A DNA stretch of 64,000 bases from Coleofasciculus sp. B1-GNL1-01 (lineage in GTDB: Bacteria > Cyanobacteriota > Cyanobacteriia > Cyanobacteriales > Coleofasciculaceae): assembly GCA_040220235.1 (NCBI GenBank), contig JAVJTO010000077.1. One strand, 5' to 3'. Positions 30,001 to 36,000 of this stretch are shown piece after piece. Position 1 is the stretch's first letter, and each line of letters opens with the position of its first letter. The position numbers were made by a program.

Positions 30001-33000
30001 CGTGCTTGATCCCTGGGCAACGGCTTCACTGAATGCGGTTCTCCAAGGGGTGATTCAAGGTGGAACCGGAACCTCTGCTCAAATTGGACGCCCAGCGGCT
30101 GGAAAGACAGGAACAACCAGTTCAGAACGGGATGTCTGGTTCGTCGGATATGTGCCACAATTAGCGGCGGCGGTGTGGATTGGTAATGATAACTACAGAC
30201 CGTTAGGCGGTGGGGCGACAGGGGGCGGATTTGCAGCACCGATTTGGCGAGACTTTATGAGTCAGGCGTTGAAGGGTGAGCAAGTGCGCTACTTTGAACC
30301 TGCGTCTAAGTATCCGCGTCCTTAGTCATTTGTCATTGGTCATTTGTCCTTTGTCATCTGCCCTTAGAATTATTGGACTCCGTTGGGGCGGGTTTAGTAA
30401 CATCTGGGTGAACATTAAATGTTAATGGTAAAACCCGCCCCTACAACAGACATTCCACCGGAACGTCTCTACAACCCCATCTCCCTTGTAGGATCAAGGA
30501 AATCTCAGTAACAAATGTCCCATGACGCTAACACAGGTTTGGGGTGCTTTACTCATTTTTGTCCTCTGTCCCCTACTGGGTGGACTTCCCCTGATTTCCT
30601 GGATTACCTACCTATTCACTAAACGCCAACTCTCTCAAGTCGGTACAGGTAACGTATCTGTCTCCGCCGCGTTCTACCACGGTGGACGTTGGGTGGGTAT
30701 CTTAGCCGTATTATCAGAAGCTTTGAAGGGAATGGCGGCTGTCTTGCTGGCGCGTTATTTCTTCCCCACAGAACCCGCCTGGGAAATCATTGCTCTGATT
30801 ATGCTGGTAATGGGGCGCTACTGGATGGGTAAAGGTGCTGGAACCACAAATGTGGTTTGGGGATTTGTGGTACATGACTGGCACGTCGCGTTGTTGGTCT
30901 TTTTAATTGGGGGGATTGGCTTTACGATTATCCGCGATCGCACGACGGGACGCTATGGTGTTTTAGTCCTATTTCCCCTAATTCTGGCGCTGTTACATCC
31001 CCATGACTTCGCTAGAATTATCAGTGCGATCGCATTGGGTCTGATTATCGGTTGGATTTATCAGAAAATTCCCGATGACTTAGACCTTTCCCCAGACCAA
31101 GCTAAATCAGAATCTCAATCCGTGTTTCGTTTTTTCCGAGGCGATAAAGCTATTATTCCGTTGGAACGTGAACTTGATCCCCAACAGGTTGGCTCAAAAG
31201 CCGCTACCTTGTCCCAGCTTAAACGCTGGGGTTATGCTGTACCTCAAGGATGGGTCTTACCCCCAGGGGATGATATGGACCCTTTGGTTAAATATCTTCC
31301 GGTTTCCGAATCAGAACCCCTGGTTGTCCGTTCCTCGGCGATTGGAGAAGATGCGGAACTCTCGTCGGCGGCTGGACAATATCAAACGGTTTTACAGGTA
31401 ACCAATCGTCCGGCTTTAAAAGACGCCATTACCCAAGTCCTCGCCTCCTATCATAATCCCGTCGCCACACAGTATCGCCGTAACCGAGATTTACCCGACA
31501 CGGCGATGGCGGTCTTAATTCAAAAACAAATCCCAGGCGTCTTTTCCGGTGTCGCCTTTAGTCGTGATCCGATGCAGCAGCAACAAGACACCGTAGTCAT
31601 CGAAGGATTACCCGGAGATGCCTCCAAAATTGTATCCGGTCAAGTCACCCCAGAACAGTATCGGGTATTTTTCCAGGAATCTAAGCCTGTAGGGGAGGGT
31701 TTGACCGATAACGTTCCCGAACAAACCGATAACTCGACGAGACCCGCCCCACTTGAGCAACAGGAGACTGGAGATAATCGTTCCCCATCGGTTGAAATTG
31801 AAGGAGAGGGAGATTTACCCCCAGCGTTAATCCAGGAGGTGGCTGTTTTAGCGCGAGACTTGGAAGACCGCTATCATGGGATTCCCCAAGATATTGAATG
31901 GACTTATGACGGTCAGCAGTTATGGTTACTGCAAACACGACCCATTACCAATCTACAACCCATCTGGACGCGCAAGATTGCCGCAGAGGTGATTCCCGGA
32001 CTGATTCGACCCCTCACTTGGTCTATTAATCGTCCCCTCACCTGTGGCGTTTGGGGAGAAATTTTTACCATCGTGTTAAAAGAACGATCGCAGGGATTGG
32101 ATTTTAATCAAACTGCTACACTGCATTATGCTCGCGCCTATTTTAATGCCACATTGTTAGGTGATATTTTCCGGCGCATGGGTTTACCGCCAGAAAGTTT
32201 GGAGTTTCTGACAAGGGGAGCGAAATTTTCTAAACCGCCCCTGAAATCCACGCTGCGGAACCTCCCCGGATTATTGCGTCTGTTAGGTCGGGAATGGAAT
32301 TTAGATAAGGATTTTGAGCAAGATTATCAACACCATTTTGCTCCGGCTTTACGTCAACTGCAAGAGCAATCGGTTTCAGAATTATCAGATGCCGAAATTC
32401 TGGAACGAGTGAACCAGATATTATCGGAATTACAACGAGCCACGTATTATAGTATTCTCGCTCCTTTAAGCCTCTCCCTGCGACAAGCGTTGCTCAAGGT
32501 AAAGGATGAAGAATTAGATAGTAGCCAAACTCCAGAAATTGCCAGCTTGCGATCACTCGCCCAATTAGCCGACGATACGCGCCATTTATTAAGTCCAAAA
32601 CAAATTAATTGTGATAATCACGCTTCTGTCTTTACCACCTTGTCAGAAATTCCCGATGCTCAAAGTGTTTTAGAACAATTCGACCAATTTCTGGCACAAT
32701 ATGGTTATCTCAGCGATGTCGCCACAGATATTGCCGTTCCCAGATGGAAAGAAGATCCGCGACCGATACGACAACTCTTTGCCCAGTTTTTATGTGATCC
32801 TCCCCCAGCACCTAAACCGCCCAAGCGTCAGCGCTGGAAAGCGGAAGTGGTACAAGCGCGTTTGAATTTAAAAGGGCGAGTAACTGAAGTTTATTCCCAA
32901 TTTTTAGCCGACTTGCGTTGGAGTTTTGTCGCTCTAGAAAAACGGTGGTTAGAATCCGGTTTACTCTCTGAAGCTGGGGATATTTTCTTCTTAGAATTTG

Positions 33001-36000
33001 CGGAGATTGAGCGTCTAATAGCGGAAACCGATCAAGTTTTGCGAGAGGAACTTCCCAGATTGATTCATTATCGCCGATCGCAGTTAGATGAACATCGTCA
33101 ATTAGCTAGTGTCCCTCCCCTCGTCTATGGCAATCCTCCCGCCGTTTCCTTGCTGATGCAAACCCAATCCGAACCCGCTCAACAGCGTCTTGTGGGAATT
33201 GGCGCAAGTGCTGGACAAGTGGAAGGTTGGGTTAGGGTTTTAAGTAACCTACAATCGGTTCCAGACATTGACCGTCAAACGATACTGGTTGTCCCCTACA
33301 CGGATTCCGGTTGGGCACCCTTATTAGCGCGTGCAGGCGGCTTAATTGCTGAGGTTGGCGGGCGGCTATCCCACGGCGCGATCGTGGCGCGGGAATATGG
33401 GATTCCAGCGGTGATGGATATTCATAATGCGACTCAGATGTTCCGCAATGGTCAACGGGTAAGAATTGATGGGCGATCCGGAATTGTGGAGGTTTTGGAG
33501 TGAGTAAAATTATCAATTAGATTGCATGAAGATCAGGTGTTAATTGAGTGTTGTCTTGTGCTATGAACGAAGAACGCCGCCAAATTTATATGGATTTGCT
33601 GTTGCAATTCAAAACCCCACGGATAACCTACCGTACACCGACTTAGAAGTTGAAATGAGCCGCACATTCTTTTCCTCTACCCAAGTCTTAGCAAAAGAGG
33701 AAGCAACTGAATCTGCTCTTAAACTTAATCAAGAGTTACCATTAGCCCACTGTATTCACTTTTCTTGTCATGGCAAGTTTAACCTCCATTCACCCCTAGA
33801 ATCATCCTTAATCTTAGCTAAAGATGAACAACCAGAAGATGGACGACTCACGCTAGCAGAAATCTTTGGACTAACACTCAATCAATGCCGCCTTGTCACC
33901 CTCTCTGCTTGTGAAACAGGTTTGACAGGACTCAATGATATAAGCGATGAATATATTAGTTTACCCAGTGGATTTCTCTACGCAGGTAGTCCTAGCGTTG
34001 TCAGTAGCCTTTGGAAAGTTCAAGACTTTTCTACTGCCTTCTTGATGATCAAGTTCTATGAAAATTTAAGTAAATTGCCCAAATTAGAAGAAGGGACAAT
34101 TGCCATTGCTCTGAACCAAGCTCAAAAATGGCTAAGAACTCTAACTAGCAATGAATTTGAAAAACTCTTAGATAAATACCATTCTCAAATTGAGCAAATC
34201 TTTGCCCAACTTCCCAAAAGCAAGTCTCGCATTTTCAAAGCATCCCTGAAGCAAGCGCGTAAGCGCCAACCCTACCCGTTTGCTAATCCCTATTATTGGG
34301 CTGCTTTTACGGCTATAGGCATCTAGAGTTCCACTAGGAGACATTACAGAATTTTCTAATTCCAATCTTAAAAGCATAAATGACAACTGGAGTAGCTAAC
34401 CCTGAGGGAATTAACGTCGTAGCAAGTAAAGCTTCCACCGAACCCGCTAGCAATCCTGCCATTATCTCATCTCTAAAATCTTCTTGACAAAGAATGGGAC
34501 GGCATCGTTCAGATATTCCCTCTAACCACTCTCTAGCACCCCGTTCAGGTTCTTGTCCTGCTTCTATGGCTAGCACCACAGCAGCATCTTCTAAATGTCC
34601 TTCACACGCCTCGATTTCGTCAAGTGCTGCGATTGCTTCTGGATAATCTCTCAATTGCTTACGAAAATTTTCAATTTCTTCTTGGGTAACGACAGTCATA
34701 TCATTCTTCCCCGAATTAACTCTTTCTTGCTCTTTTTGTCTTTGTTTTTCGTGATCGCGTTCAGATCGTTTCCGAATGGCTTCCTCAGCTATCTGGATAT
34801 TCTCTTCAATGGGTAAACCATCAGGAGTACACATTGGTCCATACCATGTCGCTTCTGAGTCGGGGGGATTACGACGACTAAACAGAGTACGAATTGCTTC
34901 ATCATCATCTCGATGAGACAGAACGTATATTTTTAATTCGGCTGTACTCATCGCTTCAAAGTTCGGCTTCATTCAAAAACCTCCATAATCCATTACGAGA
35001 CACGATAATTTGTAGTTCTTCACCTGCGAAAATATAGACTTCTCCGGTTTGAGCATTAAAGCGGAATAGCTGAATGTCCCGATAATAGTTAGACAGCATC
35101 TGGCAGACACGCAAACAGGTTTGAGCTTGTTCGTTGGTTGGATTAATACTCTATTCCTCAATTGTGGCACGGATACTACAATACAGGTCTTGTGTATCTG
35201 AGCAAATATATTGGAGAGACACGGAAAAATCGTAGGTGCATGTCAACGAGAGTAGGTTGGGTTGAGGAACGTAGGCGGAGCCTTCTCGTACTCCGGAGGA
35301 GAACCCGAAGGGTAGAGTAACCCAACAAGCGCAGGTTAGCATGAACATTACGTCAAACCTGACATGCTCCCAAAACCATCGGCTTTTGATGCTCCCGAAG
35401 CTGGAGGGGTGATATCAAATCCTGTTGATTGCACACCAATGCAATCACGTCAGAATGAGGGTTTCAGCCATTTTTAGTGAGGTTATTTAACCGGATTTGA
35501 TATGATTTGACTGTTCGATGAAACCGATGGTCTGGTAAGCGCACTCAAGCACAGCCGGGAAATAAATTTCCGGCTGAAAGCTAAAGTAAGCTAAAGCTTA
35601 CAGGATTAAAGGCAAAAACCTGTTTAAAGGGATTTTAACTTTTAGCCCATTCGCGTGACACGAGGCTACTGACATGCCAAATATCGCTATTACGCCATCC
35701 TGAGACGAGAACTGACCGCGATGCTATACTAACGCCAAGGTCAAATCTATTGGCGATCGCTAAATATCCTGCTCTGTTCCGGTAGTCGAACATTTACGCA
35801 AGGCTGTTTAGCGATGATATGTCTTTAATCCTGAGAATAACTCGAATTCTGCTTTCCACGACTTCCTCTATGGGAAAGCGAGAGGATCAATATATGGAAT
35901 TTCCTGAAGCTCTGAGTATGATGGGGTAAATGTAGATGCACCCCAGATATATACACTAACCCAACTCGTCTAGGATGGGATGAGGGGTAATACCCCCACC

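Follow-up and report, generated by a model that had tools for sequence, protein, structure and literature searches.

The closest described systems are the Rph-type phosphotransferases and the acyltransferase PlsY. In rifampin phosphotransferase the substrate sits in the middle domain and the target is the C21 hydroxyl of rifampin; in the enzyme RPH-Lm the pair R666-E667 is needed for the second phosphotransfer. HpeHI is reported to phosphorylate phenols (PMC12167813). In aaPlsY, the PlsY of Aquifex aeolicus, the glycerol-3-phosphate (G3P) site is formed by S35, R45, K104, H177 and N180 and also by R183, N37 is the oxyanion residue of acyl transfer, and T41, H92 and the glycine loop of the "phosphate hole" contact the acyl phosphate (PMC5700162). 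The activity left in aaPlsY mutants is 1.1% for R45A, 2.0% for H92K, 0.03% for H177Y and 4.6% for N180A, and T41S retains 45% (PMC5700162). The titles of PDB entries also record monoacylglycerol and lysoPA bound by PlsY.

Here, we analyze a gene that joins relatives of both enzymes in one polypeptide. It lies in the window, the whole stretch of 64,000 nucleotides of contig JAVJTO010000077.1 of the cyanobacterium Coleofasciculus sp. B1-GNL1-01, and is a single intact ORF of 993 aa (30522..33503, plus strand, ATG start, stop codon included); the strand opposite it has many stops. The N-terminus, MTLTQVWG, is common to orthologues, and the AF2 model of the whole protein has a mean pLDDT of 89.7 and a pTM of 0.77. 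The initial annotation had described a PlsY-type domain followed by PPDK_N, Rph-type and swivelling domains, and this order was recovered, with PF02660 at residues 16-178 (64.1 bits, E 2.2e-17, cut-off 24.1), PF01326 at 263-479 (E 2.9e-46) and PF00391 at 917-987 (E 3e-22), and with no further family in a Pfam scan at E <= 0.1. The features are as follows.

30522..33503, plus strand: whole ORF, 993 aa (ORF reading, shared N-terminus, AF2).
30522..31076, plus strand: PlsY-fold membrane domain, residues ~1-185 (PF02660, profile, Foldseek).
30642..30677, plus strand: remodelled PlsY motif 1, G41-T-G-N44-V-S-V-S48-A-A-F-Y52 (alignment of 125 fusions; roles from PMC5700162).
30816..30851, plus strand: G98-R99 and the Gly-rich loop M102-GKGAGTTN110, PlsY motif 2 (alignment of 125 fusions).
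31059..31079, plus strand: Y180-QKIP-D185-D186, replacing PlsY motif 3 (alignment of 125 fusions).
31077..31163, plus strand: linker, residues 186-214, with a short helix at 196-206 and pLDDT 69-85 (AF2).
31164..31961, plus strand: ATP-grasp domain, residues 215-480, with K226, R270 and T289 (Pfam, alignment to 5hv2, conservation).
31686-31772, plus strand: low-confidence insert in the ATP-grasp domain, residues 389-417 (AF2).
31962..33146, plus strand: helical Rph-type middle domain, residues 481-875 (PF27448 'Rph_4th', profile, Foldseek).
32871..32876, plus strand: K784-G785, at the position of RPH-Lm R666-E667 (alignment).
33174..33500, plus strand: swivelling phospho-histidine domain, residues 885-993 (PF00391).
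33372-33374, plus strand: codon of the catalytic H951 (invariant in 110 sequences; aligned to RPH-Lm His825).

That the gene is additional to the canonical plsX and plsY also held, since elsewhere in the genome (8.66 Mb) there is a canonical plsY on contig C17 (219-aa ORF, 169.4 bits) and one plsX on contig C141 (427 bits). The genome has in addition three PpsA-like genes, each with a full PPDK_N match. The fusion family is apparently unstudied, and its database names are apparently wrong.

The larger part of the protein is organized as an Rph-type enzyme: an ATP-grasp domain is followed by a helical substrate domain and by a C-terminal swivel that carries the catalytic His (residues 946-962, GGRLSHGAIVAREYGIP). 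The family profile matches RPH-Lm with an E-value of 4e-118, the middle domain aligning to RPH-Lm chain 532-879, the Foldseek match to the same enzyme has an E-value of 3e-29, and the middle domain bears the precomputed Pfam assignment PF27448 'Rph_4th'. At the ATP site K226, R270 and T289 align to K22, R117 and T136 of RPH-Lm, T289 being this protein's equivalent of T136; all of 110 sequences have H951, and nearly all have K226 and R270. The R666-E667 position is occupied by K in 62 and G in 63 of 66 cyanobacterial fusions (K784-G785 here), by R (6) or K (3) and E (5) or D (2) in the nine fusions of a second, "far" clade, and by R in 33 and E in 31 of 35 unfused relatives; the change from Arg-Glu to Lys-Gly is confined to the cyanobacterial clade. 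The following models for described enzymes stay below their cut-offs: the RPH equivalog NF041857 gives 225.4 bits against 999, the PigC/RedH equivalogs NF052631 and NF052632 give 220 against 1300 (the NCBIfam PigC model) and 222.5 against 1350, and TIGR01418 (PpsA) gives 169.5 against 739.75. The Pfam scan (E <= 0.1) contained no PEP/pyruvate-binding TIM-barrel family, and the His domain is C-terminal, unlike that of PpsA, which is central.

In the N-terminal domain nine helices are predicted, all within residues 3-182, and the domain shows the seven-helix PlsY fold together with the PF02660 profile match. The family profile matches aaPlsY (5xj5) with an E-value of 2.9e-9, and Foldseek superposes the domain on 5xj5-5xj8 with TM scores (target) of 0.74-0.76 and an rmsd of 2.5-2.8 A over 181-182 columns. 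This part is divergent, as had been stated, with 25% identity over 71 aa to the genome's own PlsY; the BLASTP match itself was found again, with an E-value of 1e-4 in place of the 2e-4 given before. Among the best 25 of 32 NCBIfam rows the sole PlsY-type row was PRK14416, whose 26 bits fall short of its cut-off, 222.

The residues of the PlsY site were counted, in aaPlsY numbering, in 125 cyanobacterial and nine "far" fusions. N37 is kept in 124 of the 125 and in all nine, and the glycine loop GKGAGTT is kept, one residue shorter than that of PlsY, with G105, G107 and T109 retained. In the cyanobacterial fusions S35 has become T (123/125), T41 S (120/125), R45 Y (114/125, with F in 6), H92 R (123/125; T, A or V in the "far" clade), H177 Y (120/125), N180 I (115/125) and R183 D (123/125; D in five and E in four of the nine "far" sequences), and the K104 position falls in an alignment gap or a shifted register. 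The G3P-binding set S35, R45, K104, H177, N180 and R183 is not preserved in the 125 fusions, and because the replacements fall where aaPlsY mutants nearly lose activity, acylation of G3P is unsupported. A glycerol-3-phosphate acyltransferase role for the PlsY-like part was rejected, R45, H177, N180 and R183 being swapped in 114-123 of the 125 fusions.

The family had been called cyanobacteria-wide, and of 151 genomes sampled from the class 98 indeed have a match at E <= 1e-100, mostly one that covers residues 1-993 in an open frame of ~950-1050 aa, which places the gene far beyond chance. Identity to the protein is 94% within the genus, ~70-75% in related genera and 55-60% in Nostocales, and so tracks taxonomy in the manner of a housekeeping gene. 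Within the cyanobacterial clade the mean identity of the PlsY-like domain is 0.68, compared with 0.64-0.76 for the kinase domains, and the residues kept in both fusion clades are mostly those of PlsY motifs 1 and 2 and of the E..K motif. The three ESM Atlas clusters reported previously were reproduced: they have 73, 155 and 235 members and score 0.99, 0.99 and 0.98, all three Pfam families are present in 94-100% of members, and Cyanobacteriota is the commonest phylum. The kinase clade of the fusion is also joined to the membrane domain DUF454 (2/30) and to an SDR (1/30).

Among 64 metagenome loci from outside the cyanobacteria, 26 have a same-strand PlsY-like ORF beside a related kinase: in 20 the two are no more than 100 nt apart (5 ORFs upstream of the kinase, 15 downstream), in two they are farther apart, in two they are fused and in two the ORF overlaps the kinase match. 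The two parts therefore work together, as the initial annotation had supposed of the two halves, which are fused or adjacent in other phyla as well. Split partners of type B keep H92, T, N or S at position 41 and a GGRG glycine loop ("phosphate hole"), and their N180 position carries a conserved P-E/D.

The neighbours of these genes, in cyanobacteria and beyond, include lipases/esterases, MacB/Lol-type exporters and tetrapyrrole-linked proteins, and no neighbour is common across cyanobacteria (best 8/60 loci). In 6 of 60 cyanobacterial loci the fusion is followed 6-67 nt downstream by a gene for a monoacylglycerol-lipase homologue, whose copy in L055 matches the M. tuberculosis monoglyceride lipase structure with an E-value of 1.6e-47; a GDSL lipase occurs in 5 of 60, and SDR genes adjoin the fusion in L065 and L069. 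In L111, L125 and L140 a PGAP1-like esterase gene comes after the PlsY-like gene, genes for a PucC-type MFS protein and an esterase follow in the string of L111, and L109 encodes a CDP-alcohol phosphatidyltransferase as well as a DedA/VTT protein. Carboxyl-ester hydrolases occur in four settings (MAG-lipase type, GDSL, PGAP1-like and DLH), and a MacB-type ABC exporter adjoins split systems (ATPase in 12, permease in 13 of 64 loci). A chelatase-like (CbiX/ferrochelatase-like) gene stands directly beside the kinase in L094, L095, L104 and L110, with weak matches of 22-35 bits against NCBIfam cut-offs of 120-125. There are further a SOUL haem-binding protein in L110 (E 1.4e-43), TspO in L107, L109 and L112 (E 1.6e-37 for the L109 copy, on which Pfam was run), a Staygreen Mg-dechelatase in L103 (E 1.7e-51), PucC in L111 (E 3e-80), HupE/UreJ in L082, L083 and L113, and, by eye, CobJ/CbiG-like genes within 6 kb of the fusion in 6 of 60 cyanobacterial loci. 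None of the tetrapyrrole-linked genes adjoins the fusion within the window, and homology search of this genome found close copies of neither the lipase neighbour nor the chelatase-like partner.

We tentatively propose that the protein is a membrane-bound ATP-dependent kinase, a "lipid, water dikinase", of a membrane-embedded lipid hydroxyl. Judged from its sequence, the cytoplasmic module with its full RPH-type apparatus would bind ATP in the ATP-grasp domain (K226, R270, T289), H951 of the swivelling domain would carry the beta-phosphate while the gamma-phosphate leaves as Pi, and the net products would be AMP, Pi and a phosphorylated product, presumably a lipid phosphate. The acceptor would be a membrane-embedded amphiphile held at the cytoplasmic membrane face by the PlsY-derived domain, which may have become a lipid-binding and presenting site; it would not acylate G3P, since the G3P clamp and the acyl-phosphate histidine are exchanged for Tyr, Ile, Asp and Arg. 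Several hydroxyls are candidate acceptors: the glycerol OH of monoacylglycerol-type or lyso-lipids (monoacylglycerol and lysoPA are bound in PlsY crystals), that of a prenol or a fatty alcohol, and that of a quinol or of tocopherol. In the cyanobacterial clade the middle domain has lost the RPH Arg-Glu pair, which suggests a rebuilt second transfer site, possibly directed towards the PlsY-like domain, whose conserved acidic residues D185-D186 could coordinate Mg2+ or act as a docking site for the His domain. This proposal is supported by the profile and Foldseek matches of the kinase module to RPH-Lm with its conserved H951, K226 and R270, by the retention of the PlsY fold despite replacement of five active-site residues in 114-123 of the 125 fusions, by an N-domain as conserved as the catalytic domains, by the recurrence of the coupling outside cyanobacteria, by the DUF454 and SDR fusions of the kinase clade and by the lipase, esterase, CDP-alcohol phosphatidyltransferase and DedA/VTT neighbours; a hydroxyl acceptor agrees with the Rph-type targets, the rifampin C21-OH and the phenols reported for HpeHI. 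Against it stand the retained N37 and the T41 to S change, which fit acyl-phosphate chemistry as well as a structural role, and the H92 and glycine loop of the type-B partners; moreover, no neighbour is shared across cyanobacteria, the lipase neighbour has no close copy here, and the esterase neighbours would release not only an alcohol but also a carboxylic acid.

Alternatively, the dikinase might phosphorylate a carboxylate, that of a free fatty acid or other lipophilic acid, and the PlsY-like domain would bind the resulting acyl phosphate and then pass it to PlsY/PlsX or acylate an acceptor other than G3P. We regard this as unlikely, though the PlsY ancestry of the N-domain speaks for it, as do N37 (124/125 and 9/9), the preserved glycine loop and the type-B partners with H92, T/N/S at 41 and GGRG. 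The carboxyl-ester hydrolases in four settings are also in its favour, and so is the L111 string, in which the PucC-type MFS and esterase genes resemble the LplT-Aas lysolipid repair system. The change of R183 to D/E in both fusion clades and the type-B P-E/D at the N180 position also accord with it, and because the former phosphate clamp is charge-reversed, a neutral, cationic (amine) or lyso-lipid acceptor is suggested. T41 has become S in 120/125, a substitution that leaves aaPlsY 45% active, but H92 is lost in the "far" clade and in the cyanobacterial one (R in 123/125), and aaPlsY H92K is 2% active (PMC5700162). Furthermore, the two Rph-type enzymes considered, RPH and HpeHI, are reported to act on hydroxyl-type oxygen and on no carboxylate, and the consulted portion of a review names Aas as the cyanobacterial route of free-fatty-acid activation and mentions fatty acid kinase only for Gram-positive bacteria.

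It is quite improbable that the PlsY-like domain is a mere membrane anchor or scaffold and that the Rph module works alone, its middle domain being the place where some small amphipathic compound, for instance a xenobiotic or an antibiotic, is phosphorylated. Rifampin phosphotransferase does bind its substrate there, unfused relatives keep the R-E pair, MacB-type exporter genes adjoin split systems (ATPase 12, permease 13 of 64) and the kinase clade is fused to another membrane domain, DUF454; yet N-domain conservation equals that of the kinase domains and lies mostly at the PlsY active-site motifs, two different gene orders retain a stand-alone PlsY-like gene next to the kinase, the Glu of the pair is lost in the cyanobacterial clade, and identity follows taxonomy as in housekeeping genes. 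A tetrapyrrole or turnover product as substrate, for example with an activated propionate side chain or a phosphorylated esterifying alcohol once freed, would account for the chelatase-like, SOUL, TspO, Staygreen, PucC and HupE/UreJ genes of non-cyanobacterial loci and for the CobJ/CbiG-like genes seen by eye within 6 kb in 6/60 cyanobacterial ones. We consider it very improbable, given the weak chelatase matches (22-35 bits against 120-125), loci that may represent few independent lineages, the non-specificity of TspO and SOUL as markers, and a window with no such gene beside the fusion in a genome where the chelatase-like query found no homologue. Almost no credence can be given to the database labels, glycerol-3-phosphate acyltransferase or PEP synthase (pyruvate, water dikinase): the source names and the Pfam domains above their cut-offs agree with them, but the G3P clamp is lost, PRK14416 (the only PlsY-type row in the best 25 of 32 NCBIfam rows) reaches 26 bits of 222 and TIGR01418 169.5 of 739.75, the Pfam scan (E <= 0.1) has no PEP/pyruvate-binding TIM barrel, and the genome already holds a canonical plsY and three PpsA-like genes.

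The fusion shares with RPH-Lm (PDB 5FBS/5FBT/5FBU, 5HV1-3; NF041857) the domain order, the catalytic His and the ATP-site Lys/Arg/Thr; it differs in its ~20% identity, its added N-terminal seven-helix membrane domain and the K-G that replaces R666-E667 in the cyanobacterial clade, and rifampin is not an expected substrate. With PlsY of Aquifex aeolicus (PDB 5XJ5-5XJ9; PF02660) it has in common the fold, the Gly and Asn of motif 1, the D/E..K motif and the Gly-rich loop, whereas R45, H92, H177, N180 and R183 are replaced, identity is ~21-25% and the domain is fused to a kinase. The prodiginine ligases PigC/HapC/RedH (NF052631, NF052632) have an Rph-like architecture and no membrane PlsY-like domain, and the fusion scores 220-222 bits against their 1300-1350. 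In their reaction phosphoryl activation precedes group transfer, as it would in the acyl-phosphate alternative. The fatty acid kinase FakA/FakB of Firmicutes, which feeds PlsY/PlsX, offers a functional analogy to that alternative only: it is reported to make acyl phosphate from free fatty acid in an ATP-dependent manner, with a fold and mechanism different from those of the fusion. Finally, HpeHI of Rhodococcus resembles the fusion as an Rph-like dikinase with separable parts and a hydrophobic hydroxyl (phenol) substrate, and differs in being soluble, split between ATP-grasp and swivel plus substrate parts, and without a PlsY-like partner (PMC12167813); its ATP-grasp protein HpeI (9goj) matches our protein with E-values of 2.2e-14 in sequence and 4.6e-8 in fold.

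The fusion gene of the window reads in one direction only, the opposite strand being full of stops. The order of PlsY-like, PPDK_N and PEP-utilizer domains described in the initial annotation was borne out by the reading frame and by Pfam, and its statements on the BLASTP resemblance to the host's own PlsY and on the ESM Atlas clusters were likewise reproduced.

Features of the window and Pfam domains of the fusion protein
26803-28056, + strand: TnpB/IS605-OrfB-type transposon-associated protein look-alike, 417-aa ORF with Cys-rich C-terminal part, by eye
30522-33503, + strand: fusion gene, single 993-aa ORF, ATG start
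residues 16-178 of the fusion: PF02660 (G3P_acyltransf), 64.1 bits
residues 263-479 of the fusion: PF01326 (PPDK_N), E 2.9e-46
residues 917-987 of the fusion: PF00391 (PEP-utilizers), E 3e-22
33544-34326, + strand: CHAT-domain ORF, 260 aa, profile positions 101-288 of 289, E 9e-49

It also holds that the fusion is additional to the canonical enzymes, for the host genome (8.66 Mb, 172 contigs) carries one plsX, four further PPDK_N genes and, on a separate contig from the fusion, a canonical plsY (169 bits, 219-aa ORF). When the fusion protein was scanned with NCBIfam, none of the models reached its cut-off: the top score was that of a PEP-synthase subfamily (265 bits against 945), and Rph, RedH and PigC gave 225, 222 and 220 bits against cut-offs of 999, 1350 and 1300. 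Readings of the protein as a PEP synthase or as a rifampin resistance enzyme were both rejected, on their low model scores and, respectively, on the absence of a PEP/pyruvate-binding family from the Pfam scan (E <= 0.1) and of the R666-E667 pair described below.

A single-sequence PDB search with residues 1-203 yielded only a spurious match (E 1.7), and a family profile was needed; this matches Aquifex aeolicus PlsY (aaPlsY; 5xj5) with E 2.9e-9. In the AF2 model of the whole fusion (mean pLDDT 89.7, pTM 0.77) the N-domain superposes on 5xj5-5xj8 with TM 0.74-0.76 and an rmsd of 2.5-2.8 A, and on these two grounds we take its fold to be that of PlsY. The residue roles of aaPlsY were then transferred, via the host's own PlsY, onto 125 cyanobacterial fusions, 9 members of a divergent fusion clade (the "far" fusions) and 13 canonical cyanobacterial PlsYs.

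Residues of the fusions at functional positions of aaPlsY
S35: cyanobacterial fusions T 123/125; far fusions T5, S4 of 9
N37: N kept 124/125; far N 9/9
T41: S 120/125; far A 8/9
R45: Y 114/125, F 6/125; far G, A, S or Q
H92: R 123/125; far T, A or V
H177: Y 120/125; far Y 5/9
N180: I 115/125; far S4, K2, others (of 9)
R183: D 123/125; far D5, E4 of 9

The Gly-rich loop is kept in the fusions, minus one residue. According to PMC5700162, the activity left in aaPlsY mutants is 1.1% for R45A, 2.0% for H92K, 0.03% for H177Y and 4.6% for N180A. Because the residues at these positions are replaced and the corresponding mutants so weak, the N-domain is not a G3P acyltransferase, and with R45, H92, H177, N180 and R183 all exchanged, canonical PlsY function is rejected; homology shows a PlsY-fold domain that would be unable to bind G3P in PlsY's manner. 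Within the cyanobacterial clade its mean pairwise identity is 0.68, versus 0.64-0.76 for the kinase domains, and the positions kept across both fusion clades are mostly those of motif 1 (G41-F51), E66/K69, G98, G105/G107/T109 and D185-D186. To judge from this level and pattern of conservation the N-domain is no decaying anchor, and we consider it improbable that anchoring is its only role.

The kinase half is related to the rifampin phosphotransferase RPH-Lm both by profile (E 4e-118) and by Foldseek (E 3e-29). With the roles of catalytic and ATP-site residues taken from PMC4844700, K22, R117 and T136 of RPH-Lm align with K226, R270 and T289 of the fusion, and His825 with H951, which is invariant in 110 sequences. 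The kept ATP-site residues and the invariant histidine make the first half-reaction, from ATP to His-phosphate, well supported by homology. The second phosphotransfer of RPH requires, according to the same source, an R666-E667 pair. Among unfused relatives (Rph-like kinases of the same clade that lack the PlsY-like domain) this position holds R in 33/35 and E in 31/35; the 9 far fusions have R or K there, followed by E or D in 7/9; and the cyanobacterial fusions have K in 62/66 and G in 63/66, the window gene reading K784-G785. By these alignments the second transfer site seems to have been rebuilt in the cyanobacterial clade, and the kinase half is shown by homology to be an active-looking RPH-type dikinase. 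A complex prediction of the N-domain (1-195) with the remainder (196-993) scored 0.00, which counts neither for nor against docking.

The fusion is widespread in cyanobacteria. Of 151 genomes of the class, 98 gave a match at E <= 1e-100 in a direct genome search, among them 85 of the 132 of good quality, and 59 of 81 genera are represented; most matches run the full length (residues 1-993), the open frames being about 950-1050 aa long. Loci were found in Coleofasciculus, Symploca, Nostoc, Anabaena, Fischerella, Chroococcidiopsis, Pleurocapsa, Leptolyngbya, Nodosilinea, Spirulina, Crocosphaera and others. Four taxonomic families had none by this query: f25 (0/9; genomes of 1.6-3.0 Mb), f32 (0/9), f27 (0/8) and f23 (0/4). 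When 401 genomes of the phylum were scanned with PF02660, a second match was present, as tallied by eye, in 110/126 genomes of the same order and 12/48 of other orders and, among the genomes listed from other classes, in G245 only. The few divergent members to which cluster records gave a taxon name belong to one Thermotogota MAG, one Chloroflexota MAG (a DUF454 fusion) and Cyanobacterium stanieri. In some cyanobacterial genomes there is a shorter second paralogue that matches residues 1-478 only, the PlsY-like and ATP-grasp domains, in open frames of 596-601 aa (G264:C12:1159724-1161100 and G478:C211:17808-19178), and an Atlas cluster of 72 members holds forms of about 485 aa with these two domains; such short forms may be truncated paralogues or fragments. 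One orthologue (G407:C23:147126-149429) has 3 TGA and 1 TAG codons within the match, perhaps because it is a pseudogene or was wrongly assembled.

Outside the cyanobacteria the two halves also occur as separate genes. With the 35 unfused relatives as query we gathered 64 metagenome loci, in which PlsY-like ORFs were sought with HMMs, some for the fusion N-domains and some for canonical PlsY. Such an ORF lies beside the kinase on the same strand in 26 of the 64: within 100 nt in 20 (5 upstream, 15 downstream), farther off in 2 (L094, where a chelatase-like gene intervenes, and L109, where a CDP-alcohol phosphatidyltransferase gene does), overlapping the kinase match in 2 and fused in 2. For the other 38, in many of which the flanks are short or the kinase shares no more than 25-32% identity with the query, its absence means little. 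Two types of split partner can be told apart. Type A, of about 200 aa and encoded upstream, is similar to the far fusions. Type B, 235-268 aa long and for the most part downstream, has retained D, H92, a GGRG loop and T/N/S at position 41, and is without R45, H177 and N180, having a conserved P-E/D at the former N180 position. In a quick PlsY-family tree (SH-aLRT support only; the truncated L125 row omitted), canonical PlsY (99), type B (100) and the cyanobacterial fusions (98) each form a single group, and the last is joined to far fusions plus type A at 90. The kinase clade is fused to DUF454 in 2/30 representatives and to SDR in 1/30. These proteins, P0237, P0239 and P0267, carry an N-terminal DUF454/YbaN membrane domain or a short-chain dehydrogenase, and one of the DUF454/YbaN fusions is from a Chloroflexota MAG.

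No neighbour is common to all cyanobacterial loci (59 plus the window), and the three biggest neighbour clusters are, by eye, promiscuous families (ABC ATPases, sensor kinases, GGDEF/EAL). A cupin gene lies directly downstream in 8/60 loci, a Hydrolase_4 gene 6-67 nt downstream in 6/60, a divergent GDSL-type lipase gene upstream in 5/60, and an SDR gene adjoins the fusion in 2; all four counts probably represent few independent events. The closest solved relatives of one Hydrolase_4 copy (L055) are monoacylglycerol lipases (E 1.6e-47); a search of the host genome for this MAG-lipase neighbour gave only weak alpha/beta-hydrolase matches (<=31 bits). In the split systems MacB/FtsX-type ABC exporter genes recur (permease 13/64 loci, ATPase 12/64); of the 26 loci that have a PlsY-like gene, 9 contain the permease and 9 the ATPase. 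L104 has a LolA-like gene, and a PGAP1/DUF676 esterase gene comes straight after the PlsY-like gene in L111, L125 and L140.

Gene strings of three non-cyanobacterial loci
L111, 224-10471: MacB-type ABC genes, kinase, PlsY-like, PucC, esterase
L104, 1-9466: chelatase-like, kinase, PlsY-like, non-assigned genes, ABC/FtsX, LolA-like
L109, 5000-10512: DedA/VTT, PlsY-like, CDP-alcohol phosphatidyltransferase, kinase, non-assigned genes, TspO

Neither of the genes that flank the fusion in the window, PBP1 upstream and a CHAT fragment downstream, is conserved; the latter ORF matches the CHAT domain in its C-terminal two thirds only and is probably a CHAT protease-like gene that is truncated or was given the wrong start. 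RNA-labelled metatranscriptome contigs (4 runs, 4 studies) span 30496-33104 or extend to 33524 at about 93% identity (e.g. 179 differences in 2609 bases); as they are contigs only, from a close relative, with DNA carry-over possible, they are weak evidence for transcription of the fusion gene. The intergenic region upstream (30324-30496) has tandem heptamer-like repeats of the GTCATTT/G type and a hairpin of about 57 nt with G/C-rich arms (GGGGCGGGTTT ... AAACCCGCCCC). Here the summed depth of the RNA-library contigs is 10-20x that of the flanks and contig breaks are many, so that the element is probably a dispersed short repeat.

How, then, might the two halves work together? We propose that they would act jointly on a membrane-embedded amphiphile, and the reading we favour, if tentatively, is that the fusion phosphorylates a lipid hydroxyl. 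In the literature covered, Rph-type enzymes use hydroxyl-type oxygens as acceptors; this, the drift of H92 in the cyanobacterial and far clades, and the SDR fusions and neighbours, which suggest an alcohol or ketone substrate, all point in that direction. By their titles, PDB entries show PlsY binding monoacylglycerol and lysoPA, which makes a monoacylglycerol-type or lyso-lipid a concrete candidate acceptor, and as the substrate would come without a phosphate, loss of the phosphate clamp would make sense. The main rival is the initial annotation's own proposal, that the dikinase makes an acyl-phosphate-like donor from which the PlsY-like domain transfers the acyl group, here to an acceptor other than G3P. 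The retention of N37, the change of T41 to S, the intact phosphate hole of type B, the reversed charge at the old clamp and the neighbouring esterase genes speak for this route, which we nonetheless think rather unlikely, the hydroxyl acceptors of Rph-type enzymes and the drift of H92 favouring phosphorylation of a lipid hydroxyl.

A link of the system to tetrapyrroles seems more doubtful still, below even a purely anchoring N-domain. Its basis is a set of genes in split-system loci: chelatase-like genes (L094, L095, L104, L110; weak matches), SOUL (L110), TspO (L107, L109, L112), Staygreen (L103), PucC (L111) and HupE/UreJ (L082, L083, L113); a search of the host genome for the chelatase-like partner gave no match. 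As for the labels in use, the best 120 of the 3782 matches of a word-indexed protein search (65-95% identity, almost all with the identical domain set) are named "glycerol-3-phosphate acyltransferase" or "pyruvate, water dikinase" at source; given the replaced PlsY residues, we find it scarcely credible that the database labels are correct.

More broadly, and with considerable doubt, phosphorylation by a His-relay dikinase into a re-purposed PlsY site could provide a hitherto undescribed ATP activation of membrane lipids in most cyanobacteria and, as two genes, in some uncultured bacteria. In its boldest form the enzyme may be a kinase of fatty acids (carboxylates) with no relation to FakAB, and its PlsY-derived domain may move the acyl group from the acyl phosphate so made to an acceptor without phosphate, possibly a cationic one or a lyso-lipid; this would amount to a new lipid-repair or lipid-synthesis pathway, perhaps with an unrecognised lipid class.

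By titles and abstracts, we found no paper on a PlsY-like/Rph-like fusion. In the passages covered, Sato and Awai (2017) and a 2023 FEMS review treat canonical PlsX/PlsY and Aas only. The review gives PlsX/PlsY/PlsC for synthesis and Aas for the recycling of fatty acids, and cyanobacterial membrane lipid metabolism generally passes for largely mapped. Yet an enzyme of roughly 1000 residues, present in some two thirds of the genomes sampled from the class, is without an assigned reaction and goes under two misleading database names; at a minimum, the annotation of fusion proteins as "glycerol-3-phosphate acyltransferase" needs correcting. If the fusion phosphorylates or activates a membrane lipid, it would be a further step in the turnover of thylakoid or envelope lipids, exemplify the re-purposing of a PlsY active site, and bring membrane substrates, besides soluble drugs and aromatics, into the range of the Rph-type dikinases.
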